Origin: Trypanosoma brucei
Lineage: Eukaryota
Length of the DNA stretch: 64,000 nucleotides
Assembly: GCA_000002445.1 (NCBI GenBank)
Contig: AL929603.2
Location: 480,001-544,000 of the forward strand
Direction of reading: 5' to 3'
The notes under the pieces are model-generated. The model saw only the letters and a list, made by a program, of their open reading frames with translations. It was not told the origin of the DNA and did no database searches. This document shows positions 30,706 to 55,023 of the stretch, piece by piece. The position numbers and the translations under genes were made by a program. Positions within the stretch are counted from its first letter, which is position 1; every line of letters begins with the position of its first letter.

Positions 30706-30762
30706 TGTGTGTGTGTGTGTGTGTGTGTGTGTTTGTTTGTTTGTTTGTTTGTTTGTTTTTTT
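30706..30762. repeat. compound (GT)n-(GTTT)n microsatellite
   Basis: gtgtgtgtgtgtgtgtgtgtgtgtgtttgtttgtttgtttgtttgtttg in the 3' flank of the TOR gene. Confidence 0.9.
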
Positions 30763-32990: not shown

Positions 32991-33007
32991 AGAGAGAGAG
33001 AGAGAGA
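32991..33007. repeat. (GA)n microsatellite with adjacent (GGGA) motifs
   Basis: gggagggagggagagagagagagagagaagg. Confidence 0.8.
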
Positions 33008-34038
33008 AGGAATAAGAAAAAAAAAATTTAATTTTAAAAAAGAAAAGAAAAGGGGTCGTACAATTTATTAGTCAGGGAATGGATGTGCAGGGAAACAAGA
33101 TGTAATAAAGGTCAAGGAAAATTAAAAAAGGAAAAGAAAAAATAAATGATTGTTCAATGATTGTTGGCGTCCTTATTATCATCATCACGTATTTCTTTTT
33201 TCCCTTTACTTCTCCTTCACCGATTTTGTTGATTTATGTATTCATTCCCATATTAACCCACGACAATATTGTGAAAGAACCAGTGATAATGCGGTATTAT
33301 GCATAGTAAAATCCCGACAAAAGGAAAGTGAGGAAAAAAAAGGAAGCAGAAAATTAAAGTAACGATTGAAATGACGTTTTTGGAATGGAAAGGAAGAGAA
33401 GGAAAGAGAAAAAAATATGAGCAAGATGGAAAAAAGCGAGGTTGGGGGAGGGAAAAAAAGGAAGAAAAAGTGAAATAAAATAAAATAAAATGGGAAACTG
33501 GCACAGTTTGTTTAGTAGGGTGTGAAGAAATGAATGTGCATGCCTCTCTCACTTTGCGTGCGTATATGCTTTTTTTTTCCTGTTTAGCGTCAATGGCTCA
33601 AGGTATGTAGAAGATCCTCAGCAGTGGTTCAGTCAGGTAAAGTAAAACAAAAAAAAAAAATAGAGGACAGTACAGGGAATCACGAATAAGAAAAAAAAAC
33701 TAGCAAGTATAGTTGACATCAAATATGTTTTGTTAGTTGCTTCCGATTTACCATTGTCATCATTATCATCTTGTTCTATATCGGAGTCTCCTCATTTTTT
33801 GCGGGGTGCCATCGCATTACGTTCATTCTTCCACATATTTCACTGCACACACGTACACTGCATCCGCTGCCTTCAAGAGAGAGGGGAAAAGAGGGAGAGC
33901 ACCAAAGTGCCTTGGACGGGAAGCGAAAATAAGTAATAAGGAACATTAATAATCATAATAACAATAACGATAAAAGTTAGACGACGAAGAACAAAAAAAA
34001 AAGAAATAAAAAACACAAAAAGATAACAGAAACAGGAG

Positions 34039-37711: not shown

Positions 37712-38431
37712 TTGTGTGTTTCCGCCGTATTCTTCAACCGGTACCTGTGCATAATGGCCACCGAAGCGGAGAAGGCGCAGGTAGGAACGCATCCCATCCA
37801 AGAAACAAATAAATTAATTAGTAGTTCGAACGTAATGAATAATGAGCGACCGGCGGCGTGGAACTTGAAGGGCCGCAGCGCAGTTGCCGCCTTCGATCCC
37901 GTTACACGCCACCGTATCCTCCAGTCCCAAACAATGGCCGCTTGCTTTCATCGTCCGCTAATGGCAACGATGGAGGACCTCATTTCCGTGTCGTACGTCG
38001 GCGGATTGAGTGGTCCACTGCGCAAACCTGAACCGTTTATTTGCCTTATTGCGAGGGTGCTGCAAATAACGCCAAACACCGCTATTGTGATGGCAATGCT
38101 TCGGCAGGACGTGCATAAATATTTGCGCGTTGCGGCACTCTTCATCATTAGGCTTATTGGAAATGGCACCGCGATGCGTGAGGCTCTTAGGATAGGATGG
38201 AATGACTACAGGAAAATACGCGTCTATGGAAGCAAAGATGATTGTACATGTGAAACTAAAAGCCAAGATGGTGAAAAAGCGGATACGAATGAAGTGGAGG
38301 GGGAGGCGCTGGTGGCGGCGCCAATTCACGCAATCATGTGCGTAGATGAAATCACGGATCGTTTGTTCAACACCGGGCGAGAGGGTTACAGCAGCACATG
38401 GTTAGGAGTTAACTTTTCTCCGCTCCTGTGA
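37712..38431 (+). CDS. PRP38: PRP38-family pre-mRNA splicing factor
   Basis: 239-aa ORF. The block SYVGGLSGPLRKPEPFICLIARVLQITPNTAIVMAMLRQDVHKYLRVAALFIIRLIGNGTAMREALRIGWNDYRKIRVY...AIMCVDEITDRLF aligns motif-for-motif with the conserved PRP38 N-terminal domain (FVGGVYGG-KPTPFLCL--KMLQIQP...KYVR-LGALY-RLTG...YNDYRKIK...HVDEFIDELL). Confidence 0.88.
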   Translation: MCVSAVFFNRYLCIMATEAEKAQVGTHPIQETNKLISSSNVMNNERPAAWNLKGRSAVAAFDPVTRHRILQSQTMAACFHRPLMATMEDLISVSYVGGLSGPLRKPEPFICLIARVLQITPNTAIVMAMLRQDVHKYLRVAALFIIRLIGNGTAMREALRIGWNDYRKIRVYGSKDDCTCETKSQDGEKADTNEVEGEALVAAPIHAIMCVDEITDRLFNTGREGYSSTWLGVNFSPLL

Positions 38432-40140
38432 AGCACCCTGTCGCCGCGTACAGTTGGGGATGCGATGGGTGCAATATGGAAGGAAAATTAACTGTGACGG
38501 GTGCGACGTCACCGGAATAGGGGGCATTTCTCCTGCAGAATCAGTCCCCGGAACGTAACCCCGTCCCCGTGCTCTCGATGTTTCTCCTCTCTTTCTTTTT
38601 TTTAAACTCGTGCGTGCAAGGAAATGAGAAAGGAGTAGGAAGTTCTCCCTTCGGTTTGTTTCCACATCCCAGGATTCCGTTCAGATATTTTCACGGTACC
38701 GGTGCCGGGATCTGCGCCCGTGTTTTGCGATAGGAGTTCGACGCGGATGTGGTGGTAAACAGACATTGAGGAAAGGGAAGCCTTCAACACAAATGGAAAG
38801 CGCTGACGGAAGGAATCACACGAAGCAGGAATGAGGAGACGGTTCGACACATCGGCCGGATGCGCAACGTAAGTAATAGGGATTTGGGGTTCCTAAAACC
38901 GACGAATAAATTTAAAGACGCCCAGTCTTCCAGCACCCGCTACACATTCCATGCGAATGTTTTGCGTCGTCTGGAGAGTCCGCGAGCAACAGGCTCCAAC
39001 GGCGGTTTACCTTCGATGGGGTGGCTGGCGCCACATCTCCTCATTCGTACGGGAGCGACTTATGTGTTGCCCTCCTGAGGAAATAACTGGAAGGGAGAAG
39101 CGGAGCGGCTCAACCCAATACTGGAAAGTTCACACAGGAAGCCGTTGGAGCGCAAGCACGTATGGTGGTATCACCACCTGAGTTTCGTGCTTTGGAGGGA
39201 AATTAAACAAACCCTAACTCATAAATGCCTCCGCCCGAGTGCTTCCTCTCCTCTTTGAATCACCCATCATCCGCATATGGTGGATGCGGGGATTTATTGT
39301 CATTATTATCGTTGGCGTTACTTGCGAGCAGCGGCCGCATTCGACTACTGGTCCCTCTCCTTTTTTAGTTAGCGGAAAGGGACGGTCGCAGGAGGGGAAG
39401 CGTTTAAAGTAATTTACAAATGTGAAGGTGGAGAATTCAGCACCGTGTCGCCGCGTGGTCCGCAATTCCCTTTCAGCAAGCACACGTGGGAGCCGGGGTT
39501 CCGTGAAGGTCTTCCAGACCACCCAACACCACGACTGGAGGAAAAGGCCCGCATTATGCCTTCATTTTCATATTTAAGGGCGAGGAATTTAAGAACAAAA
39601 ACAGATAAGAAAAACGAAAGACATGGCGCGGCACATTTGCAGCAACCGTGCGCGTACTCAGATTTATGGTGAGGTGGACTGTTCTAGATGTCAGTGGCAG
39701 CAAAGAAAAACAACTAGACCAGTAACAACCGCTAGCCGCATGGCGGAACGCGACGGCCGGCACCCACACATAACGGTGTCCGCAGCTAAGCGCACGTCAT
39801 TACTTACCGTGTAATGCAAATATCAACCCGGCAATCGTGAAGGAAGTTAACTAACCCATCCCTCCTTCAGGTGGCAAGACGACCCCGGTTTCCATTTGCA
39901 ATTCACTTAAGCCTCTGTCCCGGTTCCATTCAACATCCCCGCCAAATGCCAGCTCCAGTCAGTTAGCATCCTGCTTCCCCAACACGTAAAAAATAAATAC
40001 GGGATTGGTCCCGATGCTTCGTTTTCCCCTCTCCTCCACATCTTTGAATTATCGACGGGTTTAAGCGGCCCGTTTCTTCAGCACCGTAACACAATTAGCC
40101 GAGACTGCTCTCACCCCCATCCGAAGCAGCGATACAAACA
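38432..40140. promoter_or_regulatory. putative convergent strand-switch / transcription termination region
   Basis: The last plus-strand gene ends at 38431. From about 40.1 kb the plus strand becomes A/C-rich (so the minus strand is pyrimidine/GT-rich) and the next gene is on the minus strand. There are no long ORFs here. I found no tRNA-like A/B-box structure by eye. Confidence 0.4.
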
Positions 40141-40141
40141 G

Positions 40142-40295
40142 AACACAATGTACCACAACAAATACCAACACAAAATGTTCACAAATCACAGCACTCGTTA
40201 CCCACAATTCCGCGTACGAAAGCACACAGAGGAAAAATTGTACACTATTTCACACGGAGGCAGTGGGTGTCACAAATATCCAATCATCGCTGAAA
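40142..40295. repeat. copy A of an imperfect ~150-bp direct repeat (partner at 44288..44425) flanking the minus-strand surface-protein gene
   Basis: aacacaatgtaccacaacaaataccaacacaaaatgttcacaaatcacagcactcgttacccacaattcc...cggaggcagtgggtgtcacaaata versus aacacaacatgtcacaacaaatatcaacacgaaatattcactaatcacaacactcgttacccacaattcc...cggaagcagtgtgtgtcacaaatg. Hand alignment gives roughly 80 percent identity, same orientation. Confidence 0.65.
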
Positions 40296-41079
40296 ACAAA
40301 CATAAGCACGACAACGAATGTGAAGGAAATCCCAACCACATACACGTGTACCCAGGACTAAACACCATCAGGCTGGCACTTTGGATTGGAAGTCGAATCT
40401 ACGCAAAAGATAGTGTTCACCAAGAACCTTGCACAATTCCTCCTAGAACTTGAGAAACCCCTCATTCCCTTCCAACATGTACTTTCTTCATTCTGGAGGA
40501 ACACTCCACTCAAGGAGAGACTACATACAATGTTGCCTTCCGTATAAGTGGAAATTGTAACCCCTCGCCCCTGTACATTTGGATCGTAAAAAGGTATGTA
40601 GAAGTCTTGGGACCCCAAATACGGTATTACAGCCATAGCGAATGTTTGACAATTAAATTGTCAGTAACCCGCACTTGCCCCTTACAACTAGTTCCAACCT
40701 AACCTATACAAGTCATTAATAAGACAAATATAGTATTATCTGACACAGATAGTAACAAGCTAATAGCACACTCACAACAGAGCATAATATACAAAAAGAG
40801 TTACATAAAGTTTCTAGCTCCCTTGAGATGTCATGGCATCACCAGAGAGCTCTCCAAACAAACCACCGCTATCTTGATAACGGCACTCAGCATTGCTGGC
40901 AGTTACTGCTAAACAAAAAAAATGATACAACATTCATTATTCATCTTAACAAAACAAATTCATATGATATTACTTATACACTCACATATTTAAGAATTAA
41001 ACAATATGCACACGTGTACATGCACAAACCATTAAAAAAACAAGATGCTACGCAACAATGTTGGTAACGTAACAATAAA

Positions 41080-42462
41080 CTAAAACATACAAAAAAGGGA
41101 AAGAATTAATAGCATAACAACACCAGTTTTCACATCTATATAATAGAAACAATCATTATTTACCCCAGTATCATAACCTTCACTGTCACTTTCACCTTGA
41201 GCTCGGTTACTTTTCCATAGCCCAGCATCACCACCAAGTTTCACCTCAAGAAATATTTCCTCTGCCTCATGTTGGTATTCTTCCAATTCGTGAAGATGAC
41301 TGTCAGACTCTTTGGCATACTTTGCCATTTCTTGTAGTTGCTCGGTGGCGTTAGTAAGATGGTTGTACCAAGGAATCCCACCATTTTCAAGTGTGTGATT
41401 GTAACTGACACATGTGAATCCAGCAGTGTAACCCAGGCACGTGCTATTCTCGTTATGGTCTGTTCTCACGTAGCCAAGAATACCCTTTACCTGATGGCCA
41501 TTCTGTCCCAAATTCACTAATGCATCAAACTGAGCTAATGCACTCTTTAAGGTTTTCACATTAGATGCAACATTTTTGTATGCACAAGCCTTACTAATCA
41601 CATCCCAAGCCTCAGTATGGTTGTATTTTATTTTCTTAGGGTCGCACTTGCTGTTATCACCTTTACAAGAATCAGCCATCATAGTCCAACTACCATTTTC
41701 AGGTCTCCTTATTTCATCCTTGCAAGGACAGTTATATCCATTATATATATTGTCATCACTACTGTCTTCGACATCTGAATCATGGTGATGTGTCCCTCTC
41801 TCTTCTTTCTTAACAATGTCGATAGCCTCCCCAACACATAGGCAGAAGAAGTCATTAATTAGTGTCTTTCCAACTAGCTTGTCTCCAAAAGAACCGCAGC
41901 TCGTGGCTGCATTGTAGACACTATTGAACAGCAGTGATTTGTTTCCTCTCATGGCTTCCTCCAGAGTTTTATTCTCATTTCTTGCCACATCCACAGCGTC
42001 GCCATACACAGCTCTCAACATATTTTCCTCAGCAGAACGACTTGCATTTAGCGATCTTGTCCTATTCACTTCTATTTCTTCCTTAAGTTTTTTAGCCTTC
42101 TCAAATAGTTTCTTCATCTCCTGATATGCTGTCGTGCTGTTAGATGAATTGCTCGAGCCCTTATTGCCAGCAACAGTTTCTGCCTCACTGACCATTTCCT
42201 CCAACTTCTTCAGAATCTCTCCTTCCTTCTCACGATTCTTAAAGGAGGGTTGTGGGGCCTCTGCTTGCGTGATTCGGTAAATCCTGCACAGTGTCTCGAA
42301 TTCACCAACGTTGTGGTGCTTTTCTTCTTGATGGACATTATCCCTGATCGCCCTCCAATCAATCAACTCGGGGGTCCACTTGAAAGACCACATATCACCC
42401 TGAGAGGAAGGAGATAAGACAGCCGCAAGCAACGCAATGGCAAACACTGTTTCGCGCCTCAT
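41080..42462 (-). CDS. Cys-rich, heavily N-glycosylated surface glycoprotein with signal peptide and C-terminal GPI-type hydrophobic tail (VSG-like / VSG-related; family unresolved)
   Basis: The minus-strand ORF 41080..42543 encodes 487 aa. The most plausible start is the second ATG at 42462, giving MRRETVFAIALLAAVLSPSSQG, a classic signal peptide. There are many NxS/T sequons (NSS, NST, NRT, NAS, NKT, NKS, NGS, NHT, NAT) and about 16 Cys including paired CxC motifs (FFCLCVG, YNCPCKD). The N-terminal half is predicted helical with charged heptad-like stretches. The C-terminus, ...NNDCFYYIDVKTGVVMLLILSLFCMF, ends in a short hydrophobic tail typical of GPI-anchor signals. It is the only gene on this strand in the window. 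Confidence 0.75.
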   Translation of the reverse strand: MRRETVFAIALLAAVLSPSSQGDMWSFKWTPELIDWRAIRDNVHQEEKHHNVGEFETLCRIYRITQAEAPQPSFKNREKEGEILKKLEEMVSEAETVAGNKGSSNSSNSTTAYQEMKKLFEKAKKLKEEIEVNRTRSLNASRSAEENMLRAVYGDAVDVARNENKTLEEAMRGNKSLLFNSVYNAATSCGSFGDKLVGKTLINDFFCLCVGEAIDIVKKEERGTHHHDSDVEDSSDDNIYNGYNCPCKDEIRRPENGSWTMMADSCKGDNSKCDPKKIKYNHTEAWDVISKACAYKNVASNVKTLKSALAQFDALVNLGQNGHQVKGILGYVRTDHNENSTCLGYTAGFTCVSYNHTLENGGIPWYNHLTNATEQLQEMAKYAKESDSHLHELEEYQHEAEEIFLEVKLGGDAGLWKSNRAQGESDSEGYDTGVNNDCFYYIDVKTGVVMLLILSLFCMF

Positions 42463-44287
42463 CGTGATTTTGCCTCTACATTCATTAGTCAAAGAGAGGG
42501 ACAAAAGCTTATCATTACAGTCATTATTGTTATTGAGAGACACACCCAGTAAACAAATACATCAATATATCGAAGTTAATAAGTGCCTGGGACAAACCAG
42601 CTGCTGCAGCATCCAACAAAGGGGGAAACACACACCAATACACATATTTACATGGGTTCACCCTCCTAAGCTGCATATTAACATTAAACACCCTCACAGC
42701 TGTTTTCCCATTGATTATCTTACTCTTACATATATCTGCATACAATAAATCCACTTTCTTAAACACCATGCTAGATCCTCCACTTTCCCAAGTGGACTGT
42801 GCTCCAGCCTTTTTGATTTCCTCAACAAGCTTATCTATTCTCCTATCGAGCACCTGTACATTTATGTTAAAATTATCCAAATCCTCCATTGGCTTTATTA
42901 ACTTCGGCTGCTACCTTATTGCTTTATTCGCTAGCACATTGCGTACTTAATCCGGACACATGTGTTACCTTTATCCAATGAACACCACTTTGCCGTTAAG
43001 CTTTATTTAGCATATCATCCTTTCTTCATGCATGTGCTGACACAACACTCTTCGTTGCCCTCTCTGCGTGCATGCACAGCTCCTTGCCTTCCATTTTCTT
43101 AAATCACACACTCTTAAAGGTAACAGTTAAATTTTCAAAACGCTTTCATTAGACACTTGTTTTTATTGAAACGTTTCATAATACTGTGATATGATGGAAT
43201 ATTATGTTAGTTGCCAACACACAAAACAGTCCCAGAACAACAAGTGACCTTCCCCATCAGCATCCTCATTTATATTATTTGCGACATAAAAATAATCACC
43301 ATCCTCTCAGTTAACTCTTGCCATCCTCACACCATATGCAAAGAGCATTAACACACTCCACCACCCCAGAGGAAAAATAATGGAGGGGCAGCCTTATTTA
43401 TCATCACTCACGATTAAAATAACTCAAAACAGAAACACTCCAACGAAAGAAATTATAACCTACGACAAACATGTAAGCACACACATGCAAAGATATGTAT
43501 GTTTATCACTATTGTGGGGAGGAGGAGTTATTTATATGAATGCACTTCCTCATAGTAATACAACTAGTACTATTCACACTGCCAATAAGATTCGTGTCGA
43601 GTTGCAGTTAGGCAACATTTCTGTTTACTTCGCTAAAGCATGAAAGGGTGTAAAAAATATATCTGACATCAGCTGGAGGTAAACGGAAGACGATTATTCA
43701 GTAGCATCGAAAAACAATGATGAGAGAAGTGAAGATGTCATGCACTTCATTGACAGAAAGAAAACATTTACATTTCACTAAACAATTAAAGTCATTTACA
43801 GAGCCACTCATAAATAAATTATCCCGTGGAATGGGGCACCTGCTTATGCTTCCACTGACACAATCCCATAATGGACGATATTCGCCATATTGGGATACGG
43901 ACTTACCTATTTAATATCACCCCATACCGTGATAACTGTCTCCATAATAGCCGTGTAGTACGTATTTGCTTTCACAAGAGCATTATATCATATATTGCTT
44001 ACTTCCCTGACACATTCATTATCTTCAGCGAATAATACACCAGCCTTAGCTACAAGATATCCCATTACACTCCAATAAGATATATGTTATCCCTGTCAGT
44101 CACTTTCACTCTGACATCAAACATACAGGATGCTATTGTGTATACTTCCCCATTAACAAACAAGTCCTGCTCCTCACCCCTAACGTAAAGTTCTCTTCAG
44201 TTTATTCAAAAGTTAACTAACACAACATACAAACATAATTAGCTTATATTTTGGGAAATCATATACTGATCCGCTGATACATGCTGC

Positions 44288-44425
44288 AACACAACATGTC
44301 ACAACAAATATCAACACGAAATATTCACTAATCACAACACTCGTTACCCACAATTCCATATTCTAAAACACATACACTACTTTAAACGGAAGCAGTGTGT
44401 GTCACAAATGTATAATCTTAGTAGC
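44288..44425. repeat. copy B of the imperfect direct repeat (partner at 40142..40295)
   Basis: See copy A. It lies about 1.75 kb upstream (in gene orientation) of the surface-protein ATG, whereas copy A lies about 0.8 kb downstream of its stop. Confidence 0.65.
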
Positions 44426-44699
44426 AAAAAATGTTTTATGCAGTATAACACTGAATAACATAACCAACACTGCTACAAGGGATGTTAAACCCATTAGGAT
44501 ATGCTACTGCTTTTTCGTCCTTAAAACATTATTACCTATCATATATCCATCATCCACACTTCCCTTGCGTTTCCTTGCGCTCTCGCTGAAACGTTTACAG
44601 AGAATCAGGCTCTGGGATAACAATTCTTTCAATCTACTTTGATGCCCAGTAAAGGAAACAAAGATCAGCTCTACATCACCGTACTGTTTGGTAATACTC

Positions 44700-45300
44700 T
44701 CCTATCCGTTTCTAACCAAACTAGTTGCTGATAAGCTAGGGCACTATGTCACTGCACATTAGGGTGACAACACCATCCCTATGGTAGGTAACGAAACCTC
44801 CAGTAGTTCCCACTATGAAGGATCCAGCCCCTCCATTTGCAACATCTTCCGTACCCATGATCCAGCTTTCCATATTGTTATTGGCTGTGAATTCAACCAG
44901 TTAGTTGTATAATTATTTGTGTAACCAATATACCGTCATTTGGCATATCTTCAGTGAAGGACATACTACAGCTCATTGGAGACTCCACCGTGTCGTTCTA
45001 ATGGCCATTTACTCCACCACTCACAGATTCATTTCCCTCTTCTGAATAGACAGCTTTCTCCTTCACAAGACAACAACCATTTGCCTTAACATCTGTTTGT
45101 TCAAACACCATTACCAGATCCTTCAACACTTGTCCAATTGACAATGATGCATTCACAACATGATTAGACACTCTTACTTCGTTTAAATAACTTGCATCTA
45201 TTACCTGTCCAGGTTCATCTGTATTCTCCACTATCTTCCTCAACCCCTGCATTATTGTTTTCCCTTCCCTCCCCTTTATACCATTCTGACGTCACCACTC
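44700..45300 (-). other. degenerate minus-strand coding remnant (possible pseudogene fragment) upstream of the surface-protein gene
   Basis: An 84-aa minus-strand ORF (44998..45252: MQGLRKIVENTDEPGQVIDASYLNEVRVSNHVVNASLSIGQVLKDLVMVFEQTDVKANGCCLVKEKAVYSEE...) is followed by further open stretches in other frames. Its composition is unlike the surrounding A/C-rich DNA, and it has no start context or recognisable domain. Confidence 0.2.
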
Positions 45301-45699
45301 CTAAAATCCATTCAACATTCCCGTCGCCTCCGATTGTTATTTTCAAAAACACTAGCACTCACAACACTTAAGGAATAGCTGAGGTTACATAACCCCATGG
45401 TGATGCAGGCCACCCCAACTCACCGCCAGAGCCTGGTGCCGTACTCAGGTAAGAAAAGAAAAGCGACCGCAGCCTACTCCACTAGGATGAAGTTCAGACG
45501 GAAAGTCCAAGGCATCAATTCACAGTGGGGCACACACCAGATCCGTTACAGAACGGGAATTATTCCCAGAAACAACCTGTGTACGTGCAAGAAAAGAAAA
45601 GAGGCACATTTCGCTTCCTCTCTCTAGGGAGTTGTGGCCTCATTATAAATGTTTTTCGTAAACTCTTTTCATAACTTTAACTGGACTGTCGGGCACACT

Positions 45700-46600
45700 C
45701 TACGGAAGAGTGGTGTAGCGTTTTTATTTTAATATAACTTTTTTTTATGTTTTATGCATGCTTGCCATGAGAACAAATCTCAAATCGCAGGTAAGCGTAT
45801 TCACACCGAAGATAGGGATGTTCTCGCACCGTTGGCAGAGCTATTGTCACGACGTGCATCAGCCAATGTGGCGAAATGACCCTGAGGAGTGGCATGTCCT
45901 GCGCGGTGGGCATGGAAGAGCACGGTGTTACGAATGATAAATAATGAACCTTATTCTCCGCCGGAGAGCGTCCAGGGGAGAAGCGCTCTTTTGTTAGAAA
46001 ACGAGTCCCTGCCACTTGTGTATGCGACGCTCGTGGTATTCGCCAGTCATTGGAAAGGGGGAAAGTATCGTTTACACAATATTGCCGTAATGGTAGTCCC
46101 CCCCCCAAAAGTTTCAAGTCTTTGAATCGATCTTTCTTCTGTATCGATGCAGATGGTTACGTTGGCATAAGCGTCACGGTATTGTTCGCATCGTTGGGGA
46201 ATCGGGCTATGCGTTGGTGAGGGCGAGAGGACAACGGGAAGCAATGAACCGGAAACAGTTTGGATGTACAGACACGGTGCGGCGCCTCGTCCCTCTCCCC
46301 CTCTGATGTGTTGAGCGGCCGTTGCTCTTTTCGTGCAGCTGAGGGATTCGAGAGGCGGCGCCCCCCGGTCCAGTTCCCGACTCCCTTGTGGCGGGAAAAT
46401 TGCTGTCGCTTCTAATGGAAGTGCCCTTGATGTTGGAGGTGTTACAGCTGCCATTTCACGACCGGCGGGTATCCGTGCCGTGAGGCTGAAGGCGCATTCG
46501 GGGGGTTGTCCGGCGGTTGTTCGCCGCGGCGGTTCCGTCAGTGGCCACACTTCGCCTTTTACTTTAATACTTTAGTGGGGTTGTTGTGCTTTAATTATTT
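45700..46600. promoter_or_regulatory. putative divergent strand-switch region / RNA pol II transcription start region containing a GC-rich island (about 46140..46560)
   Basis: The strand composition flips here. The plus strand is A/C-rich to the left (genes on minus) and strongly G/T- and T-rich to the right (46560 onwards: ggggttgttgtgctttaattatttattttattttc...ggtctggggcgttatctatttttttttcgg), where all genes are on plus. In between lies an unusually GC-rich segment (ggcggcgccccccggtccagttcccgactcccttgtggcggg...gttgtccggcggttgttcgccgcggcggttccgtcagtggcc). Confidence 0.45.
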
Positions 46601-49005
46601 ATTTTATTTTCTTAAATGGTCCAATGTTGTCGGCTTGCGGAAGGGGTGGGCGTGTATTCTTTGTCGCCGGTCCTCTTCCTCCTTTTTTTCCTGCTGGGTA
46701 CGGGGCGCATTTGTTATGTGTTTTCGGTCTGGGGCGTTATCTATTTTTTTTTCGGTTCGAGCCGCGCAAATTTACATTCAAACCAGTAAAATACATGGGG
46801 TTGGGTCGGATCAATGTGGTAGAGAATTTTACACGAACGCGTCCGCTGTATGCATAGACGGGAAGAGGTGCATGGGGACATCCGTTTCTGTTGGATAAGT
46901 GGGTGCATCTGTGTATTTGTTTCTTTTGTTCCCCAACGGCGTCACCATTGAAATGTGTTTTTTCTTTGCTTTCAGAGGTGCAGTGGAGTATTTTGCCAAT
47001 ATTTGGTCGCGGCGCGTTTCTATCCGCTGTTAAGGCCAACTTCACGCGGTGTCTGTGTATTCGGTGAAGGTAAGCGCGGACATTGCCACCTGCTGGAATG
47101 AGGACCGTTTTATAGCATTAGTAGCGGCAACACTCTCCTGACATTGTGCTTCCTCACTACTTATTGGGATTTTTTTTTTTGGTGGCATACTTTCGGTGTA
47201 ATTGTTTTGAACGGTTGGGGTGCAATATCCGAAAGTGCTACCGATTGCGGCAGGCGCGGCTTATCTTTGAACATTTGTGTATAGTTGTTTTTTTTTTTTT
47301 CACGGTAGGTGTTAGCATTAAATGTCACTTTTGAGATATTTTTGATGTTTTTTTTTTTCTTAAATCCTAGCCGCTACTCGATTTCACAGCGGTCTACGTT
47401 ACAATTGGGTATTTTCGTTTAATTGCACCGAATCCGGACGGTATTAACTATAGAAACCACAGTGATGTTCTTCTATTCTCTATTTACGGCTGTCTCGTTG
47501 CAATTCCTGTTTGCTGTGTCGGTATGGCGATTAGTTCCCCCTTTTTTTTTGAATGTATGCAACATGTATATTTATAACCGTGTTGTTTGCAAGTTTTTTG
47601 TTAGGTAGGGCTGTTGGAAGAGTTAATGTTTACGGTATCCCTCTTCCAAAGCAATTGGCGAAGTTACTGACATGCCGAAGGATTAGCTCCCACTTTATTA
47701 TTTCGGCAACTTCCAGGGGGGAAGGGAGAAAACTAACCCTAGTCATATGAATCTCTTACGACAGCGGGTTGGCCGAACGGTCAATTTTCGCCGTCGGAGT
47801 CTTGAAGTATAATTTTCGTTCGATATGGATTAGATGTTGTAACTTCCTAATAATTTTGCGGTCATTTCTCGGTGTAGCAACAGATTTACGCGCCGCACCG
47901 GGATTACGTGCGTTTCCAAGGTCTTTAACATTTAAAGCATTGTCAACAACTGCTGTCGGATTTTTTTTTAAATGTGGAATTAGAAATTATTAAATAGCGT
48001 TTTGGTTACTCACAATAAGTAATTCTATGCCAACACGAAGTGACTTGGCTGGGCGCATTGCATATTTCGAATATGGAGTAATGAATATCTTTTTTATCGT
48101 TATGTTGGGATAAATACGAAAAATATTACGCTTGTTGTTTCTGTTCTACTTTGAAGTTATTGCATCATGTACGATGCAATAACGGAAGTTCTTCCAATAA
48201 TTTGGACAATGAAGCCCCGCACGCTTAATTTGTTTATATAAAGTGTGTTGTTGCTGATTCTTTTTGGAGTTTGTCTCTCTGTTCTTTTTTGTTTTTTTTT
48301 AAATATAAGTACCTGGGGGGAATGCGGAGCGAGAAAACGGATGTTGGAACTGTCGATTTAGCTTTCCTATTATTATTTCTGGCTAGGGACTCCAATGGTG
48401 GAATTAAGTTACTTCTAAATCATTTTTTTTCCAAAGGAAAGTAGTTACTCAGTATTGTAAAAGGTTTCGTCCGTTGTAGGTTTGTATTATCATGAAACAG
48501 GTAGTTGTAACGTATATACCATTCTTTTTTACTTTTATGCCATGCAAATTAATAATAGTAATAAGTGATGACCTGTAGCTTGATTTAAGCCGTGTTACTC
48601 GCAATTGTTTTTATTACTCTTTGAACTGTTGGCATGATCGTTACATTTTTTGAATTTTTGCGAAGAATGTACCCCTCGTGAGCTATTACTCTCTTGATAT
48701 GAATATTCAGTTGATTGAGTTGACTTCTTTCTTTGACTGTTTTTTTTTTTTAATCAGGGTTAATGCTCTTTCATTTTATTGATATCAGAACATGTGTATT
48801 ATATTGGTAAACTTTGTATCGATGCAAAAACTATCTTTTTTTTTTTTACCGTCAGAGGTTTGAATTTGCGTTTTACCCCATTTGAGGAGCATGCACAAGT
48901 TTTTGTTTTTTGTCTTTAGCTTTTGCTTGTGCAACTGTAAGCACTTGTTTATTATTATTATTATCTTATACTTAATTTCCTATGGTACAGTGACGTTATG
49001 ATCAT

Positions 49006-49025
49006 TATATATATATATATATATA
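49006..49025. repeat. (TA)n microsatellite
   Basis: tatatatatatatatatata in ORF-free T-rich DNA upstream of the calpain-like array. Confidence 0.9.
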
Positions 49026-51582
49026 CTTCTTATTGAATTGTAATGTAACGACCACATTTTCAGAGAGGCCGTGAAAAGAATACTCTAACCTTGCTTTCCT
49101 TTTTATATTAAATAAAACATGAAGTAGTTATTTCATAACTTTACTGACGCCCATAATAAGTTGTCTGTTTCTATTTCTTCTAAAGGGGGGAGGCACGTGG
49201 TCAGGTCGAAGGCGCATCCCCAATGTTATTTTCTTCATCTCCATGGGCAATGTCAATTAACGGTGCTTTCAATACCATTCCTTTTAATGATTTCCTTTAA
49301 TATATCAAATATTTTAAATGAGTCCTGCACCTTCGTTGTCGGATTTATACCGAACTGGGCACTGTGGTAAAGCTGGTTGAAAAAAAGATAGCGAAAACAA
49401 CAAAAACGGTCTTTGTTTTTTGCTGTTGATTTCACTCAGGACATGAAAACAATAAATTTGAGTATCTTAACTGTTAAATTGGTACATACATTGGTGAATC
49501 AAATGCGTTGTGGTGGTGATAACTGATTTAAAATATCGCACTCAATTTTTTTGATACGTTAGTTCTATCTGAGTGATTTGGATGTATTTCCTTTGACGAT
49601 ACGCTTGCTTTTCTAAAGAAACGTTATCACTAATGTTGTTGTTCCCTTCTTTATTGTATAGCTTGTTGCCAGTAGACACTTACTTTATTGGTTCTGCTTC
49701 ATGATATCTTCAAGCTAAAAATTTGTTGTAAACCTTGTTTCGTTGCATTCAATTTTGATCGGTTTCTTTCTCTTATCGGTTATGTTTTATTATAATTGTT
49801 TTGTCATCAGTATTTGTGTGAAGCAGGCACCAGTCTTCCTTCTCTGGAGAACTTTAAAGGCGGAGGAATTTTTTACCTCTCCCATAAAGTTGAACTTTAG
49901 CCTTTTCCATTATCTTTTTAAAAAATCTGACTAAATATCTTTGTGGGATAAGAAACTAGCAGTGCCTCATAGCATTGACATCCCGGTCACTCTTCTCTGC
50001 CCAGCACATGGTATTGTTAAAGAACACATGTATATGTTGCTGTTGTTTGTTTTTATATAAGCTTTTAAGTAACATCACAGATATTTTGGTTTATGAAGTT
50101 CACTCCTTTCGTCATCAATTGCTTGGAGTATGTGTGGTCTGCAACTGATTTTTTTTTGCCGTTTATTTGTTTTGTCCTTTCTTTTTTAAAAAGTGTCCCA
50201 CCAAAGGGCATGCCAATAATCTACCCTTCGTGGTCGCACGTCTTTCTTTTTTTTTTTTTGACATCCAATCTCATTTCCTCCATTACAGTGCCGTTGTAAG
50301 ATATGTTTTTTTTTTTAATTCTTTCGGACGGGGATTAATGACCAAAAGTACCAAAAAGGAGAGACGGAGGCGAGAAAAGAAAATGTGGCCGTTTTACCTA
50401 AATGTTAGTCTCTTCCCTTGTCTTCTCTTCCACAGCCTTTGAAGTTTTCAACCATCGTAGGTACTTTTTTATTCTTTTTTTTATTCGGTTAGAAATTTTT
50501 TTTATTGCTGTCAAGATCTTTTGTTTTAGTAATGTTTGTCCTCTTTTATTCTTGTGTAATTATGTAAACGCCCTTTTGTCTTGGGCTTGAGACTTTTTAT
50601 TCCATGACTGTTTATGGGAACTCGTGTGTTATACATTTGTTAGAGGCCCCTTTTCCGTGCTTTCTCTTTTTTGGGGGGAGGGGAGTTTGCGAAAGGGATT
50701 ACCAAGTTGCACCCCCAAAATTATTAATAATAATAATATACATTTGTTCTTAATGCGTATCAATAGCAAATAAATACCAGGGATTTGTCTTTTAGAAGCT
50801 CTCACCGCATCGCGCAGGAGACAAGTTCAGAAAAGTAGTAGCATTCTCTTATAGGCTTGTTCTTAACTTTGAAATATTTTATTTACTTTCCATTTGCTCT
50901 CTCTCTCTGTGAATGGGTTTGCTGCCTCACAAATTTTCAATACTCATTATGTATATCGTTTCTTTTCCCAACGCTTTCACACATTTGACATTGGGTAGGA
51001 TAAGTCAGTGACTTATCCGTTTTGTTTTCAATTAGACGTGGTGAAGTGAATTGAAGTGTGTCCCGTTGCTATGTAGGGGTGTTTGAAACACAGTGTAGGT
51101 GGGGAAGTAGTTGGTTAACTTTTCTCATGTGTGCACTTGTGTCGTGTGATAGGTAATTGCTTTCCTTTTTATTCATTTCCTAAAAAAACACTATGTGCCC
51201 TCCATACCCTGCGGAAAGATTAGTTGTGCTCTGATAAAGGGATGTGTTTTATATGTTCATGTGATGAGATTAAGTTATTCTGGCGCTGCGACGGATGGTA
51301 TGGCACTTTGTGATTTAAATGTACTTTCAGGAAGCTGTATTGTGCTATCGGTGGGTTTTGTGTGGTAATGCGCGCACTCGTTGTTTTAGCAGGCTTCGCT
51401 GCTGCTTTAGTTGTTGTGTGTTTGTTATCAGCGATTTATTTTTCCGATCCCTTATGCAGTGAATTGCATCGGTCCCTATATATACGTCCCCCCTTTTTTC
51501 ACACTGGTACACGGAGGATAGGGTTATTTGAGAATAAGCGAATCCAAGCATATCTCTTATCCTTAAGCATCAGGGGCAAGAT

Positions 51583-54500
51583 ATGTCGGAGTTCGAACTT
51601 ATGAGTGAACTGAGTGAAAGCGCAGCAAAGGGTGCGCTCAGCGAACAGGCAGAAGATGGTCATCGTACCTACTCTCCTGGGCCTGAAGAGGAAGAAAACC
51701 CTGATGCAGCAGGGCGTGAAGGCGCGGCAAAAGATGGATTGGATGCTCATGCTGAAGAGGCCTCCCCAGCGCCATCACCTGCAGGTGAATCGGATGAAAA
51801 GGCCAGCAAATCTGAGCATGAAAGTGAGGCAAAGGAAGGGTCGGATGGCCGTGCTGAAGAGGCCTCCCCAGCGCCATCACCTGCAGGTGAATCGGATGAA
51901 AAGGCCAGCAAATCTGAGCATGAAAGTGAAGTGAAGGAAGGGTCGGATGGCCGTGCTGAAGAGGCCTCCCCAGCGCCATCACCTGCAGGTGAATCGGATG
52001 AAAAGGCCAGCAAATCTGAGCATGAAAGTGAAGTGAAGGAAGGGTCGGATGGCCGTGCTGAGGAAGCTTCCCCAGCGCCATCACCTGCAGGTGAATCGGA
52101 TGAAAAGGCCAGCAAATCTGAGCATGAAAGTGAAGTGAAGGAAGGGTCGGATGGCCGTGCTGAAGAGGCCTCCCCAGCGCCATCACCTGCAGGTGAATCG
52201 GATGAAAAGGCCAGCAAATCTGAGCATGAAAGTGAAGTGAAGGAAGGGTCGGATGACCGTGCTGAGGAAGCTTCCCCAGCGCCATCACCTGCAGGTGAAT
52301 CGGATGAAAAGGCCAGCAAATCTGAGCATGAGAGTGAGGCAAAGGAAGGGTCGGATGGCCGTGCTGAGGAAGCTTCCCCAGCGCCATCACCTGCAGGTGA
52401 ATCGGATGAAAAGGCCAGCAAATCTGAGCGGGAAAGCGGGACCGCTGACGGGTCAAGCGGTCGTCCTGAAGAAGTTTCCCATGCGTTTTCACCTAATAGG
52501 GAATTGGAGGACAAGGCCAATAAATCGGGAGGCGAGAGTGTGACCAAGGGCTCGGATGGCCGCCCCGAAGATATTTCTCATCCGTTTTCACCTAATAGGG
52601 AATTGGAAGAAAAAGCCAATAAATCGGAAGGCGAGAGTGTAACCAAAGATGGATCGGATGGTCATGCTGAAGAAACGTCTCCAGTGCAGTCACCTGAAGG
52701 AGAGGTAGGCGAAAGGTCTGCCGGGGCAGGATCTGATCATGAGAAACAGAAAGGCGAATCATGTTTCGATGACCGTGACACTGGCAATGATCAAGCTGTT
52801 GACCGCAATGCTCACGATGCAGCGCCCCATTTGGACGACAAACACACCAATGGGGCCGCTGCAGATGCTACCGATGCACCACGCCACACTCAAGAGGTCA
52901 ACGACCTGTTCAAGCCTCGAATGACACCTTACAAACAGCCTGACCGTTGGGATCCCATTGAAACCTATCTGGGAGAGGATGTCAGTGATGAGTTGGAGAT
53001 CACCACGGCACGTAAGCCCGTTTTCACCGATGAGGAGAAAGCTGACGTGCCAACCTTTAAGAATGGCGAACCAGACTATGAGGGTGAGTACCTTTCATGT
53101 TTCGATGAGCCTAATCTGCTGTACCGTATTTACAATCGTGAGGAGAAGACGTGGGCCTTCTACAACGACACATACAGCTATGAGATGCATGTACGATTCA
53201 CCTTTGCTAAACTCTCAAAACTTCAGGCACTGGGGAACACGAAGATGTACACTCAAGAGACAGGTGAGCATATTGCGGAAGTCATTGTATATCCTCGGGA
53301 GACCGAGATGTTCGTCAAGGGAAATGCTAATGGCTTTACAAGCAAGCTTCGAGCAGTCCCTCTAACGGAGGAGTACTACGCCCGGCGGCAAGAATTGGCA
53401 AACAACAAGATTCAAGAAGAAATCGCTCGCGTCAAAAGTATCGTTGGCGATGTAACAGATTCGGAGCAGGTTCTCAAGGCCTGTGTTGAAAATGGCATCC
53501 CTTTTGTTGACCTTGAGTTTCCACCATGTCAAGACTCTTTGGCGACCGGTGCAAAAAAGCCGTTCAAACGCCTTCCATGGGTTCGTCCTTCGCAATGCCT
53601 CCCCGATTACATGGCTGATCAGGTGCGCCTCTTCCGAGGACCAATTCGACCTGGCCAGGTGGACCAAGGAGAACTGGGTGACAGTTGGGTCATGTGCTCT
53701 ATAGCGGTGCTGACGGAGCGACCAGACAAGGTCGTCAACATGTTTCGTCACCCAACTGACCCAGAATTGGGTAAGAAGGAGCGTTCTGTGGGCGGTTACC
53801 GCGTATCTCTCAACAAGAATGGGCAATGGCGCAGCGTGATTGTGGATGACTATCTTCCCATGTCTGGTGGCAGGCTAAAATATGCAAAAAGCAGATACGA
53901 CCTCGCGGAAATATGGCCATGCATTCTGGAGAAAGCCTTCGCCAAGCTGCATAATAGTTATGCCAATATCTGCTCCGGTGATCCTCTCCACGCCCTCCAA
54001 GATATGACTGGTTTCCCGACCTCCAGGTTTGACGACGCCTTTGCCAACGCTCCCTTGTCTGGGAAGGACGATCTGTTCCAGGACTGGGTGAGGTATGTGA
54101 AGGCACAGTACCAGATTATCTTAAGCACACCTGGAAAGAATCCAAGAGACAAAGCTTCCGGCGAATGCCACACAGCAAGGCGGTACACAAGCGTGGGTCT
54201 CCTTACAGGTCATGCGTATGTGGTTCTCGATGCAGCATTCTTCCCCGAGTATGAGTTACGTTTGGTAAAGCTGCGTAATGCCTGGGGTCGTGGGTCGGAG
54301 TGGAACGGCGACTGGTCTGACGGCGACGAAAAGTGGGAACGGTATCCAGATGTGGCGGTGAAGTGCGGTTACAGCAATGGTGAGAGCGATGGCACGTTCT
54401 GGATGGCGTGGGATGCATGCTTGCGCTACTTTAACGGCGGGGGCGTGTGCTTCACGAGGAACTCAATCAACGATTACCGTGTACCCTCCACGTTTGTAAA

Positions 54501-55023
54501 CTGTACGCCTTCCTGTGTCCTTGAAATAACTGTTGAGCAGCCCACGTGGATGTGCTTTATGCTCTCTCAGAAGGATAAACGCGGCTCCCCTGAGGCCCGT
54601 GAGTACAACCCCGTCATGATCAGCATCGCGCAACCCATTGGGGGCGGATTGTACAGGGTAGTGCAGAACAGCTCCGCTGACGCCTATCATCCGCTTAGCG
54701 ACAAGTGGACTTTCTACCAGGCTCGTGATATCAGCATCCTATACGAATTGTTGCCAGAATCCTCACCGTACATTGTGATACCCCGCTTAATGTTAGTGGA
54801 ATCGCAGCCTGATGAGGTACCTTACACATTGAGTTTCTCCTGCAAGCGTGCTGTTGGTCACGAAGGCGTGACTGTGCAGCTGAAGACCATCGATAAGGAC
54901 AACAAGGTTCTCTACAACTTCCCCAAGTTTGAGCCCGACCTCAGCTCTACTGATGTGGAGTACCAAGCACGGGTTGCTCACAAGCCGTTTCCTGAGCTGA
55001 AGGTGGACTCCTCCGTGTGCTGA
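51583..55023 (+). CDS. calpain-like cysteine peptidase family protein (kinetoplastid type, predicted catalytically inactive) with N-terminal 34-aa tandem-repeat region
   Basis: 1146-aa ORF. After the repeat region comes a kinetoplastid calpain N-terminal (DUF1935-like) domain, CFDEPNLLYRIYNREEKTWAFYNDTYSYEMHVRFTF...ALGNT. The calpain protease core then follows. The catalytic Cys motif reads QGELGDSWVMCSIAVL (Ser in place of Cys). The His motif GHAYVVLD and the Asn motif LRNAWGRGSEWNG are retained. C-terminal domain-III-like sequence follows. It resembles the chromosome-1 CALP1.x cluster of T. brucei (tentative). Confidence 0.93.
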   Translation: MSEFELMSELSESAAKGALSEQAEDGHRTYSPGPEEEENPDAAGREGAAKDGLDAHAEEASPAPSPAGESDEKASKSEHESEAKEGSDGRAEEASPAPSPAGESDEKASKSEHESEVKEGSDGRAEEASPAPSPAGESDEKASKSEHESEVKEGSDGRAEEASPAPSPAGESDEKASKSEHESEVKEGSDGRAEEASPAPSPAGESDEKASKSEHESEVKEGSDDRAEEASPAPSPAGESDEKASKSEHESEAKEGSDGRAEEASPAPSPAGESDEKASKSERESGTADGSSGRPEEVSHAFSPNRELEDKANKSGGESVTKGSDGRPEDISHPFSPNRELEEKANKSEGESVTKDGSDGHAEETSPVQSPEGEVGERSAGAGSDHEKQKGESCFDDRDTGNDQAVDRNAHDAAPHLDDKHTNGAAADATDAPRHTQEVNDLFKPRMTPYKQPDRWDPIETYLGEDVSDELEITTARKPVFTDEEKADVPTFKNGEPDYEGEYLSCFDEPNLLYRIYNREEKTWAFYNDTYSYEMHVRFTFAKLSKLQALGNTKMYTQETGEHIAEVIVYPRETEMFVKGNANGFTSKLRAVPLTEEYYARRQELANNKIQEEIARVKSIVGDVTDSEQVLKACVENGIPFVDLEFPPCQDSLATGAKKPFKRLPWVRPSQCLPDYMADQVRLFRGPIRPGQVDQGELGDSWVMCSIAVLTERPDKVVNMFRHPTDPELGKKERSVGGYRVSLNKNGQWRSVIVDDYLPMSGGRLKYAKSRYDLAEIWPCILEKAFAKLHNSYANICSGDPLHALQDMTGFPTSRFDDAFANAPLSGKDDLFQDWVRYVKAQYQIILSTPGKNPRDKASGECHTARRYTSVGLLTGHAYVVLDAAFFPEYELRLVKLRNAWGRGSEWNGDWSDGDEKWERYPDVAVKCGYSNGESDGTFWMAWDACLRYFNGGGVCFTRNSINDYRVPSTFVNCTPSCVLEITVEQPTWMCFMLSQKDKRGSPEAREYNPVMISIAQPIGGGLYRVVQNSSADAYHPLSDKWTFYQARDISILYELLPESSPYIVIPRLMLVESQPDEVPYTLSFSCKRAVGHEGVTVQLKTIDKDNKVLYNFPKFEPDLSSTDVEYQARVAHKPFPELKVDSSVC
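51751..52464 (+). repeat. 7 near-identical tandem copies of a 102-bp unit (34-aa repeat AEEASPAPSPAGESDEKASKSEHESE[V/A]KEGSDGR) in the N-terminus of the first calpain-like CDS; about 2.5 further degenerate units run to roughly 52720
   Basis: The exact period is visible in the sequence: gctgaagaggcctccccagcgccatcacctgcaggtgaatcggatgaaaaggccagcaaatctgagcatgaaagtgaagtgaaggaagggtcggatggccgt recurs at 51751, 51853, 51955, 52057, 52159, 52261 and 52363 with only a few substitutions. All three frames on both strands are open across it, which produces the artefactual ORFs 51614..51934 +, 51638..52492 - and 51747..52547 -. Confidence 0.95.

Follow-up and report, generated by a model that had tools for sequence, protein, structure and literature searches.

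We analysed a 64-kb window of T. brucei TREU927 chromosome 1 (480001-544000; Tb927_01_v5.1:480001-544000). Adding 480000 to a window coordinate gives the chromosome coordinate, and the results equal the published coordinates of Tb927.1.1990,.2040,.2060,.2070 and.2100. An open reading frame (ORF) scan at a threshold of 180 aa placed every ORF on the plus strand, with four exceptions. Three of these (27115-27687, 51638-52492 and 51747-52547) are each nested within a large plus-strand gene and were rejected as spurious. The fourth, 41080-42543, contains an ATG-initiated coding sequence at 41080-42462 (minus strand), which is the sole credible minus-strand gene of the window; the claim of the earlier note that all other genes lie on the plus strand therefore holds. 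An exact-sequence look-up identified the intact 460-aa product as Tb927.1.2040 (CAJ16269.1 / XP_001218906.1), deposited from TREU927 as "ESAG2, putative". Homologues were found down to E = 2.6e-283, which together with the exact deposited protein puts the gene far beyond chance. With an identity of 63-91% to named ESAG2/GRESAG2 proteins, it belongs, as a chromosome-internal copy, to the ESAG2 (GRESAG2) family.

The protein carries a Pfam VSG_B domain (3.1e-25). Ten cysteines are invariant among the paralogues and C245 is present in at least 90% of them. Many motifs are, like the cysteines, invariant across the family, and Tb927.1.2040 keeps all family-invariant residues. Its N-terminus is hydrophobic over residues 4-19 (MRRETVFAIALLAAVLSPSSQG) and resembles a signal peptide, residues 444-460 are hydrophobic up to the very C-terminus, and the chain has 11 N-X-S/T sequons and 13 cysteines. 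Overall, these features suggest a secreted surface glycoprotein of the GPI type, as the earlier note had described, with both terminal signals judged by hydrophobicity only. ESAG2 proteins are surface glycoproteins of the invariant kind, predicted to be GPI-anchored and descended from b-type VSG N-terminal domains (PMC3605285). The family localises to the cell surface, its expression-site copy to the cell-body membrane (PMC4587319). The Tb927.1.2040 copy would presumably be GPI-anchored as well.

The description "VSG-like" is also borne out by the predicted structure. The PDB sequence match is VSG615, and the top fold matches of the AF2 model are all class-B VSGs (VSG615, PDB 8ok8; mVSG1954, 8b3w; VSG11; VSG3) at probability 1.0, with target-normalised TM values of 0.53-0.59. 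The long-helix core is predicted confidently; the overall pLDDT is modest (60.8), so that fold details are not established. Could the gene then be a true VSG, or the pseudogene of one, left behind in the chromosome core and serving antigenic variation as an archive donor? The domain, the predicted fold and the GPI-signal-like tail would fit. Nevertheless, Pfam gave no match to a VSG C-terminal domain, and structural-alignment identity to VSGs is only 12-17%, against 63-91% to ESAG2 proteins. Moreover, no 70-bp-type tandem repeats lie upstream, the gene shows the linkage to ESAG11 and ESAG1 that is typical of ESAG2, here to relics of the two, and it has a syntenic orthologue in T. b. gambiense, being invariant between subspecies instead of hypervariable. 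Domain, identity, repeat, linkage and synteny tests thus refute this reading, to which we assign next to no probability. The suggestion of a VSG-related gene with a non-antigenic role was right in kind, as ESAG2 rather than VSG. Fam1 (the Tb927.6.1310 array) and the VSG-related (VR) genes, likewise specific to T. brucei, are comparable: they too are VSG-B-derived and bloodstream-biased, have a signal peptide and GPI signal without a canonical VSG C-terminal domain, and lie at a strand-switch region (PMC3605285). They belong to different clades, however: Tb927.1.2040 groups with ESAG2, whereas Fam1 proteins have 347 aa and are encoded in tandem arrays.

The gene lies in an island of ~5.3 kb (~40.1-45.4 kb) in minus orientation, wedged between two conserved plus-strand polycistrons of housekeeping genes. 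It is not the one-gene unit previously proposed: pieces of ESAG11, ESAG1 and ESAG2-like pseudogenes and an ESAG11 stub lie on the same strand. A frameshifted ESAG11 pseudogene (44459..45392, minus) spans residues 39-367 of the protein; eleven ESAG11 proteins used as tblastn queries gave summed E values down to 1.7e-68, with three or four pieces in shifted frames at 45-72% identity, and a protein search also matched ESAG11. Tb927.1.2060 (44736-44873) and Tb927.1.2070 (44998-45252) are annotated fragments of it. An ESAG1 pseudogene fragment follows at 43716..44083 (minus). It matches aa 30-107 of ESAG1 from the T. b. gambiense chromosome 3 cluster (L009; tblastn, 54% identity, E = 1e-17) and an ESAG1 fragment in L008 (tblastn, E = 1.4e-4), and blastn aligns 44088-43881 to L009 13113-13320. 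The C-terminal third of a second, divergent ESAG2-like gene (VSG_B, 488-aa type) occupies 42593..42964 (minus) with in-frame stops; tblastn with aa 360-487 of the 488-aa VSG_B protein of L008 gave 36% identity (E = 2.4e-13), the stops falling inside the alignment. The gap from this tail to the ESAG2 ATG is 131 nt, compared with 134 nt in L008. A 119-aa ORF (42530-42889) overlaps the tail and is probably the old Tb927.1.2050 ("hypothetical, unlikely"), going by the gene numbering only.

On the other side of ESAG2, 40917..40987 (minus) is a stub of the ESAG2-ESAG11 spacer plus the ESAG11 start, aligned by blastn to L009 11518-11591 (77%) and L010 11492-11580, where ESAG11 begins at 11571 and 11560 respectively; the remainder of this ESAG11 copy is deleted. 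The segment 40270..40592 (minus) is shared with the downstream flank of the ESAG2-ESAG11-ESAG1 cluster on T. b. gambiense chromosome 3 (L009 15723-16051; blastn, 76% over 331 nt, E = 4e-59). A direct repeat of ~150 bp has its copy A at 40142..40299 (minus) and its copy B at 44288..44431 (minus), the latter directly 3' of the ESAG11 pseudogene, so that copy A looks like the flank of that pseudogene. The repeat search recovered the two copies as families D3 and D4 (76-82% identity, 4132-4146 bp apart), and the alignment to T. b. gambiense picked the repeat up too, as a secondary HSP. The ESAG11 and ESAG1 relics sit upstream of ESAG2, as a tandem duplication might have left them.

One order, ESAG2-ESAG11-ESAG1, is common to clusters on three T. 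b. gambiense chromosomes (11, 3 and 9), and the island is a decayed, rearranged copy of this module of other internal ESAG clusters. Tb927.1.2040 is the sole intact gene of the ESAG11-ESAG1-ESAG2like-ESAG2 block. In the distal bloodstream VSG expression site the order is ESAG2, ESAG11, ESAG1, 70-bp repeats and VSG, and the relic gene set and order match its ESAG2-ESAG11-ESAG1 module. The island differs from an expression site in being rearranged and not telomeric, and it has neither 70-bp repeats, by a tandem-repeat search, nor a VSG.

Both ends of the island are marked by composition. PRP38 (Tb927.1.1990; 37835..38431, plus; Pfam PRP38, 1e-20; annotated at 517835-518431, PMC9241505 Table S4) is the final conserved gene of the upstream plus-strand transcription unit. 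It is followed by a convergent strand-switch zone (38432..39700), presumably a termination region, with a cumulative GC skew maximum at ~39.6-39.8 kb. The zone includes the small annotated ORF Tb927.1.2000 (38951-39181, plus; PMC9241505 Table S4), and a search of it for tRNA and Rfam RNA genes found none. Between ~39.7 and ~45.5 kb the GC skew lies below zero, with positive values on either side. The sign change at ~45.5 kb falls in a divergent strand-switch region (45400..46600), where GC content reaches its maximum (54-57% at 46.0-46.6 kb) and a G-run search found a G9 run on the minus strand (46098-46106). The downstream plus-strand unit opens with the calpain-like cysteine peptidase gene Tb927.1.2100 (51583..55023, plus; Pfam Peptidase_C2, 3e-57, and DUF1935; annotated coordinates, PMC9241505 Table S4). 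A minus-strand compartment of about 5 kb thus stands in its inverted skew and GC-rich border, though it is shared with the pseudogene pieces.

Orthologues of PRP38 with upstream synteny kept are found in T. vivax, T. cruzi, T. theileri and Leishmania, and synteny with T. cruzi, T. theileri and Leishmania breaks directly after PRP38. On this comparison the island sits at a synteny breakpoint, as a T. brucei-specific insertion between the convergent and divergent switches. The island is also syntenic in T. b. gambiense, and hence the insertion or translocation envisaged earlier is not very recent. Between the two subspecies, identity is 87-94% in the island, 97-99.5% in the flanks (99.5% for flanking genes) and 97.4% in the divergent switch region.

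This divergence is one point in favour of the possibility that the island is a functionally dead relic, whose ESAG2 stays open through conversion from active paralogues or because decay has not yet arrived; it would perhaps serve as a sequence donor only, its RNA a by-product of a bidirectional start region. In addition, every other island gene is a pseudogene, RNA hardly exceeds the floor in any of the four life-cycle stages covered, and ESAG2 is a mosaic, codons 361-435 resembling a chromosome 11 paralogue more than the orthologue. By contrast, the syntenic T. b. gambiense copy retains an intact ORF of 460 codons, an intact T. b. equiperdum protein falls in the same 90% protein cluster, the family-invariant residues are all kept, a splice-acceptor-like tract is preserved, and dN/dS against the orthologue is 0.21 (dS 0.17). 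This low ratio could come from gene conversion by functional paralogues rather than from selection on Tb927.1.2040 itself. Taken together, we regard a dead relic as unlikely, though the most credible of the alternatives.

Published RNA-seq gave Tb927.1.2040 1.35, 1.85, 0.55 and 0.5 RPM in slender, stumpy, early procyclic and late procyclic forms, against 36-372 RPM for well-expressed internal ESAG2 paralogues; the reads came from another strain, with TREU927 as the mapping reference, and a locus diverging 6-13% between strains could be under-counted in this way. The low value may reflect mapping losses caused by strain divergence and paralogy, a point that also counts against a dead relic. The tag of neighbouring Tb927.1.2050 is 55 times as abundant in bloodstream forms in T. 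b. gambiense, in line with a bloodstream bias. Equally, the minus-strand unit may be nearly silent, as 1-2 RPM is close to the detection floor. Upstream of the ATG, 42463..42512 (minus) holds a pyrimidine tract (CTTTTGTCCCTCTCTTT) followed by AGs 15-25 nt from the ATG, a candidate trans-splice acceptor by the general trypanosome 3' splice-site pattern.

Bdf3 marks RNA polymerase II (Pol II) initiation regions, and of 268 dynamic Bdf3 sites, 162 are within 5 kb of a divergent switch that is taken to be a Pol II start region (PMC9241505). A dynamically occupied Bdf3 CUT&RUN site lies at 46654..47054 (chromosome 1, 526654-527054), on the plus side of the divergent switch (PMC9241505 Table S4). 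The bounding of the unit by a convergent and a divergent switch, as first noted, agrees with the skew flips and, for the divergent one, with the published Bdf3 sites. A second site, at 41726..42126 (521726-522126; same table), falls within the ESAG2 coding sequence and is unexplained by a simple "promoter at switch" picture.

ESAG2 copies in expression sites are read by RNA polymerase I (Pol I). The island might likewise be a "mini expression site" inside the chromosome, a small unit with a Pol I promoter of its own, transcribed specifically in bloodstream forms and without dependence on the Pol II units at its flanks. The GPEET/PAG3 procyclin unit, a Pol I unit, ends with GRESAG2.1 (PMC2731899), Veitch et al. 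proposed Pol I for internal ESAG2/ESAG11/PAG clusters at convergent switches (PMC2837033), and the 55-fold bloodstream enrichment of the Tb927.1.2050 tag would also fit. However, the unit would begin at a divergent switch that carries Bdf3 sites as Pol II start regions do, marks that the clusters of Veitch et al. lack, and its steady-state RNA is unlike that of an active Pol I unit. We consider Pol I transcription improbable.

The explanation we favour, at a probability of about 0.8, is an internal ESAG2 in a decayed island, read as a short, weakly expressed Pol II unit from the divergent switch. Pol II would start both ways in the Bdf3-marked region (~45.5-47 kb), and the leftward transcript would run over the pseudogenes and ESAG2 and stop in the convergent switch at ~39-40 kb. 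Trans-splicing at the candidate acceptor, the pyrimidine tract and AG that closely precede the ATG, would yield an mRNA that accumulates to a very low, bloodstream-biased level, while the sequence may be kept or patched through gene conversion with paralogues.

Compared with its family (expression-site copies; internal Tb927.1.4890, Tb927.1.5100 and the chromosome 11 cluster Tb11.01.6230-6250), Tb927.1.2040 shares the VSG_B domain, cysteine pattern, signal-peptide-like start, hydrophobic tail, linkage to ESAG11 and ESAG1, and strand-switch position. It differs in its pseudogene partners, its low mRNA and a unit that would begin at a Bdf3-bearing divergent switch. The earlier note had called this setting unusual; the gene was already annotated, and internal ESAG2/ESAG11 clusters at strand-switch regions have been described (PMC2837033; PMC3605285). 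Tb927.1.2040 is real, already known, and ordinary for T. brucei.

Among open reading frames of at least 180 aa, all in the window lie on the plus strand except 41080-42543(-) and three minus-strand frames nested inside large plus-strand genes. The scan thus bears out the claim of the earlier note that there is a single credible minus-strand gene, 41080-42462(-) when read from its ATG, which encodes a 460-aa protein. An exact look-up found the identical protein already in the database under the name "ESAG2, putative". A supplementary table of PMC9241505 places Tb927.1.2040 at Tb927_01_v5.1:521080-522462(-), Tb927.1.2060 at 524736-524873(-), Tb927.1.2070 at 524998-525252(-), Tb927.1.1990 (PRP38) at 517835-518431(+) and Tb927.1.2100 (calpain-like) at 531583-535023(+); minus 480000, these coordinates match the window reading frames exactly, which places the window at chromosome 1, 480001-544000. 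The minus-strand compartment claimed around the gene was also seen independently of reading frames, as a stretch of negative GC skew runs from ~39.7 to ~45.5 kb, with positive skew on either side.

The earlier note had proposed a family search and a structure prediction for what it took to be a VSG-like protein, and both were run. The search gave 15 matches (E 2.6e-283 to 2.7e-99) and assigned the protein to ESAG2/GRESAG2, whose full-length paralogues share 63-91% identity with it across 97-100% of the query. Pfam detected a VSG_B domain (E = 3.1e-25). The protein has 11 N-X-S/T sequons and 13 cysteines. C59, C189, C207, C209, C247, C266, C273, C293, C342 and C351 are invariant in 14 aligned family sequences, C245 is found in at least 90% of them, and the window protein lacks none of the cysteines and motifs that are invariant in the family. 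As for linkage, ESAG11 and ESAG1 relics lie on the same strand, and their intact versions are found in the T. b. gambiense ESAG clusters on chromosomes 11, 3 and 9 (L008, L009 and L010). The locus itself is not an expression site: it lies at 521 kb on chromosome 1, with PRP38 on one side and the calpain gene on the other. By sequence, domain, cysteines and linkage the gene is therefore ESAG2, and only literal residence in an expression site sets it apart. Given these flanks and this position, we regard it as a chromosome-internal ESAG2-related copy, though the databases call it ESAG2.

The VSG-like character has a structural side as well. AlphaFold2, given 14 family members, produced a model that was moderate overall (pLDDT 60.8), with long core helices that were confident (82-96). 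On this moderate model, the top Foldseek matches in the PDB were all class-B VSGs (VSG615, mVSG1954, VSG11 and VSG3; probability 1.0, target-normalised TM 0.53-0.59), and a sequence search of the PDB gave VSG615 as the only match at E < 0.001. This is consistent with the published origin of ESAG2 from a b-type VSG (PMC3605285). A bona fide VSG is nevertheless excluded. The modelled protein shares the N-terminal-domain fold of VSGs but departs from them in its C-terminal domain and in its 70-bp-repeat, subtelomeric and expression-site context. VSG_B was the only domain found, with no Trypan_glycop_C match at E <= 1; no tandem repeats such as the 70-bp repeats were found between 33.2 and 50.4 kb; the genes flanking the island are housekeeping genes; and identity is at the ESAG2 level. 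The conserved syntenic orthologue in T. b. gambiense also rules a VSG out.

Judged from hydrophobicity, residues 4-19 form a hydrophobic N-terminal stretch (MRRETVFAIALLAAVLSPSSQG) followed by SPSSQG, and residues 444-460 form another that reaches the last residue. A signal peptide, GPI site or TM domain is predicted for nearly all ESAGs (PMC4587319), and both a signal peptide and a GPI signal are predicted for the ESAG2/GRESAG2 family (PMC4587319, PMC2386149). GRESAG2 is predicted to be at the surface (PMC2386149), and an expression-site ESAG2 copy was found in the cell-body membrane (PMC4587319).

The gene had been described as a lone one, which did not hold: tblastn and blastn found ESAG11, ESAG1 and ESAG2-like pieces on the same strand. 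Small minus-strand reading frames upstream of ESAG2 matched ESAG11 in a protein search. Pfam gave no meaningful match for small frames in 40-46.6 kb. We placed the relics with the three T. b. gambiense clusters, from which the gene contexts of the paralogues were also taken. Read along the minus strand, the island consists of an ESAG11 pseudogene covering aa 39-367 in several frames (45392-44459, E about 1e-67), an ESAG1 fragment (44083-43716, E = 1e-17), the C-terminal third of a divergent ESAG2-like gene of the 488-aa type with in-frame stops (42964-42593, E = 2.4e-13), and the intact ESAG2 (42462-41080), identified by its Pfam VSG_B domain, paralogue identity and exact deposited protein. 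Beyond it, blastn detected a stub made of the ESAG2-ESAG11 spacer and the start of ESAG11 (40987-40917) and a segment that also occurs downstream of the chromosome 3 cluster (40592-40270), and a repeat search detected a copy of the ESAG11 3' flank (40299-40142, partner copy 44431-44288), all on the minus strand. The ESAG2-like relic at 42593-42964 surfaced only when the divergent 488-aa paralogue was the tblastn query; with the ESAG2 protein itself as query, no second copy was found in the window. The intact order in the T. b. gambiense clusters is (ESAG2-like)-ESAG2-ESAG11-ESAG1. Compared with this order, the island is a decayed and partly duplicated copy of the ESAG2-ESAG11-ESAG1 module in which one gene survives. 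The chromosome 11 cluster terminates at a convergent switch; Veitch et al. (PMC2837033) described it, together with two clusters on chromosome 1, as bloodstream-specific islands.

On the right, the island meets a divergent arrangement, with the minus-strand relics and ESAG2 to the left, the plus-strand calpain unit to the right and the skew changing sign at ~45.5 kb. The GC maximum (54-57%) falls at 46.0-46.6 kb. Table S4 of PMC9241505 contains two high-confidence, dynamically occupied Bdf3 CUT&RUN sites here. One, at 46654-47054, lies just right of the GC-rich stretch; the same source counts 162 of 268 dynamic Bdf3 sites no more than 5 kb away from divergent switches that are taken for Pol II initiation regions. 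The other, at 41726-42126, is inside the ESAG2 coding sequence and not at a strand switch, and may stem from either start-region chromatin spread over a wide domain or a property of the island itself. No tRNA or Rfam gene turned up anywhere in the window, so neither switch is marked by a Pol III gene. A scan for bacterial-type promoters and terminators, which is not applicable to a trypanosome, gave a promoter-like count equal to chance. Runs of at least 8 G (or C) are strongly over-represented in the window (18 overlapping matches versus 1.3 expected) and occur at 2160-2171, 13702-13712, 19766-19776, 46098-46106 and 55841-55850. The run at 46098-46106, on the minus strand, is within the divergent switch; we rejected such runs as start-site marks, as their spread over several parts of the window does not mark out the switch. 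Separately, two long AT-rich stretches (30300-34000 and 46900-51500, 31-39% GC) are without reading frames of at least 180 aa, and the second fills the 5 kb that separate the divergent switch from Tb927.1.2100, which opens the downstream unit.

Between 15 and 50 nt upstream of the ESAG2 ATG there is a pyrimidine tract and then AG, as would fit a trans-splice acceptor. In published data, ESAG2 mRNA amounts to 1.35 reads per million in slender forms, 1.85 in stumpy, 0.55 in early procyclic and 0.5 in late procyclic forms (Naguleswaran et al., PMC5879877 supplementary file 2). The ESAG11 fragments Tb927.1.2060 and Tb927.1.2070 are at the floor, and the paralogues Tb927.1.4890, Tb927.1.5100 and Tb927.11.14620 reach 36-372 RPM in bloodstream forms (PMC5879877). 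The neighbouring Tb927.1.2050, whose gene number suggests a place between ESAG2 and the ESAG11 fragments, shows a 55-fold excess in bloodstream forms in T. b. gambiense tag data. Literature retrieved under neighbouring gene IDs contained nothing on transcription at the ESAG2 locus. The best-supported reading is a short transcription unit read by Pol II from the divergent switch; its transcript would run through the relics and ESAG2 to end in the convergent switch, and processing at the candidate splice site would give a low-abundance mRNA, biased to bloodstream forms, that encodes a probably GPI-anchored surface glycoprotein. An unlikely alternative is that the island is a Pol I mini-unit, as speculated for other ESAG clusters (PMC2837033). 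Relatives of ESAG2 do sit in Pol I units (PMC2731899), yet the Bdf3 mark at this divergent switch and the scarcity of RNA speak against it here.

The island is kept in T. b. gambiense, where chromosome 1 has the identical layout of calpain, island, PRP38, YIF1 and zuotin. Nucleotide identity between T. b. brucei and T. b. gambiense is 98.9-99.5% in the flanking genes, 97-98% in both switch regions and only 87-94% inside 41.0-45.5 kb. Between the ESAG2 orthologues, dS is 0.17 and dN/dS 0.21. The divergence is patchy, with codons 361-435 resembling the chromosome 11 paralogue more than the orthologue, a pattern that suggests gene conversion among paralogues. Such mosaic divergence, together with low expression and pseudogene neighbours, would also fit a dead relic whose ESAG2 is kept open by gene conversion. 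This possibility is harder to dismiss than a Pol I unit, but the reading frame is intact in the syntenic T. b. gambiense copy, T. b. equiperdum has an intact protein in the same 90% cluster, the invariant family residues are conserved, and the dN/dS value likewise speaks against it.

A synteny check, likewise proposed beforehand, showed that gene order breaks after PRP38. PI3K-like kinase, zuotin, YIF1 and PRP38 follow one another in T. cruzi, T. theileri and L. donovani, and the series goes on with genes on the same strand. The gene after PRP38 in T. cruzi, T. theileri and Leishmania encodes a 254-299-aa protein on the same strand, and an esterase gene is also present there in T. theileri and Leishmania, with only degenerate traces in T. 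cruzi (L004 10998-13929, L005 10893-13104, L007 11426-14437). Neither gene left a trace in the window (38432-51582 compared), and neither was detected after PRP38 in T. vivax (L002). The break thus looks common to the two African trypanosomes T. brucei and T. vivax, and the island occupies a synteny breakpoint that seems older than itself. In none of T. vivax, T. cruzi, T. theileri and L. donovani does a calpain gene follow PRP38 within 10 kb. Exactly at the divergent switch (window 46590-46601), T. b. gambiense has an insertion of ~510 bp (L001 5345-5880) that TREU927 lacks; its first bases are CCCTGGCGATGCCGGCCACCTCAACGTGG, it contains A-runs, and a 12-bp duplication, TTTAATTATTTA, stands on both its sides, so that it looks like a RIME/ingi-type retroposon. 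The N-terminal part of Tb927.1.2100 (51750-52646) carries a 102-bp (34-aa) tandem repeat (6.7 copies, 96% identity) followed by a related 99-bp repeat, with copies apparently arranged differently in T. b. gambiense.

A bolder scenario, which we consider improbable as a whole, is that an inverted expression-site module inserted at the pre-existing breakpoint and made or captured a bidirectional start region that now drives the calpain polycistron, the intact ESAG2 then persisting either as a separately regulated copy with low expression or as a donor in gene conversion of the expression-site ESAG2 genes; or else that Pol I reads the island as a cryptic internal mini expression site.

The earlier observation is real and its interpretation partly right, but the locus is not the unusual, unexplained object it was taken for. 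The gene, its family and its pseudogene neighbours, including the ESAG11 fragments, are already in the annotation and literature, and T. brucei-specific surface-gene islands at strand-switch regions have been published, among them internal ESAG2/ESAG11 clusters, a transposed ESAG6/7 pair on chromosome 7 and arrays of Fam1 and Fam4-7 (PMC2837033, PMC3605285). As a discovery the locus therefore has little weight. Possible additions to the annotation we saw are further gene remnants (the ESAG1 fragment, the ESAG11 stub and the second ESAG2-like relic), the repeat at the island's flank and the patchy, mosaic divergence, which sharpen the picture and leave its kind unchanged. Pol I has been speculated to read internal ESAG islands, and a small, well-bounded unit with published Bdf3 sites would be a convenient test case for this question. 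More generally, the locus is a tidy example of expression-site-type genes colonising polycistron boundaries, in which one reading frame has outlasted its decayed partners with signs of gene conversion.
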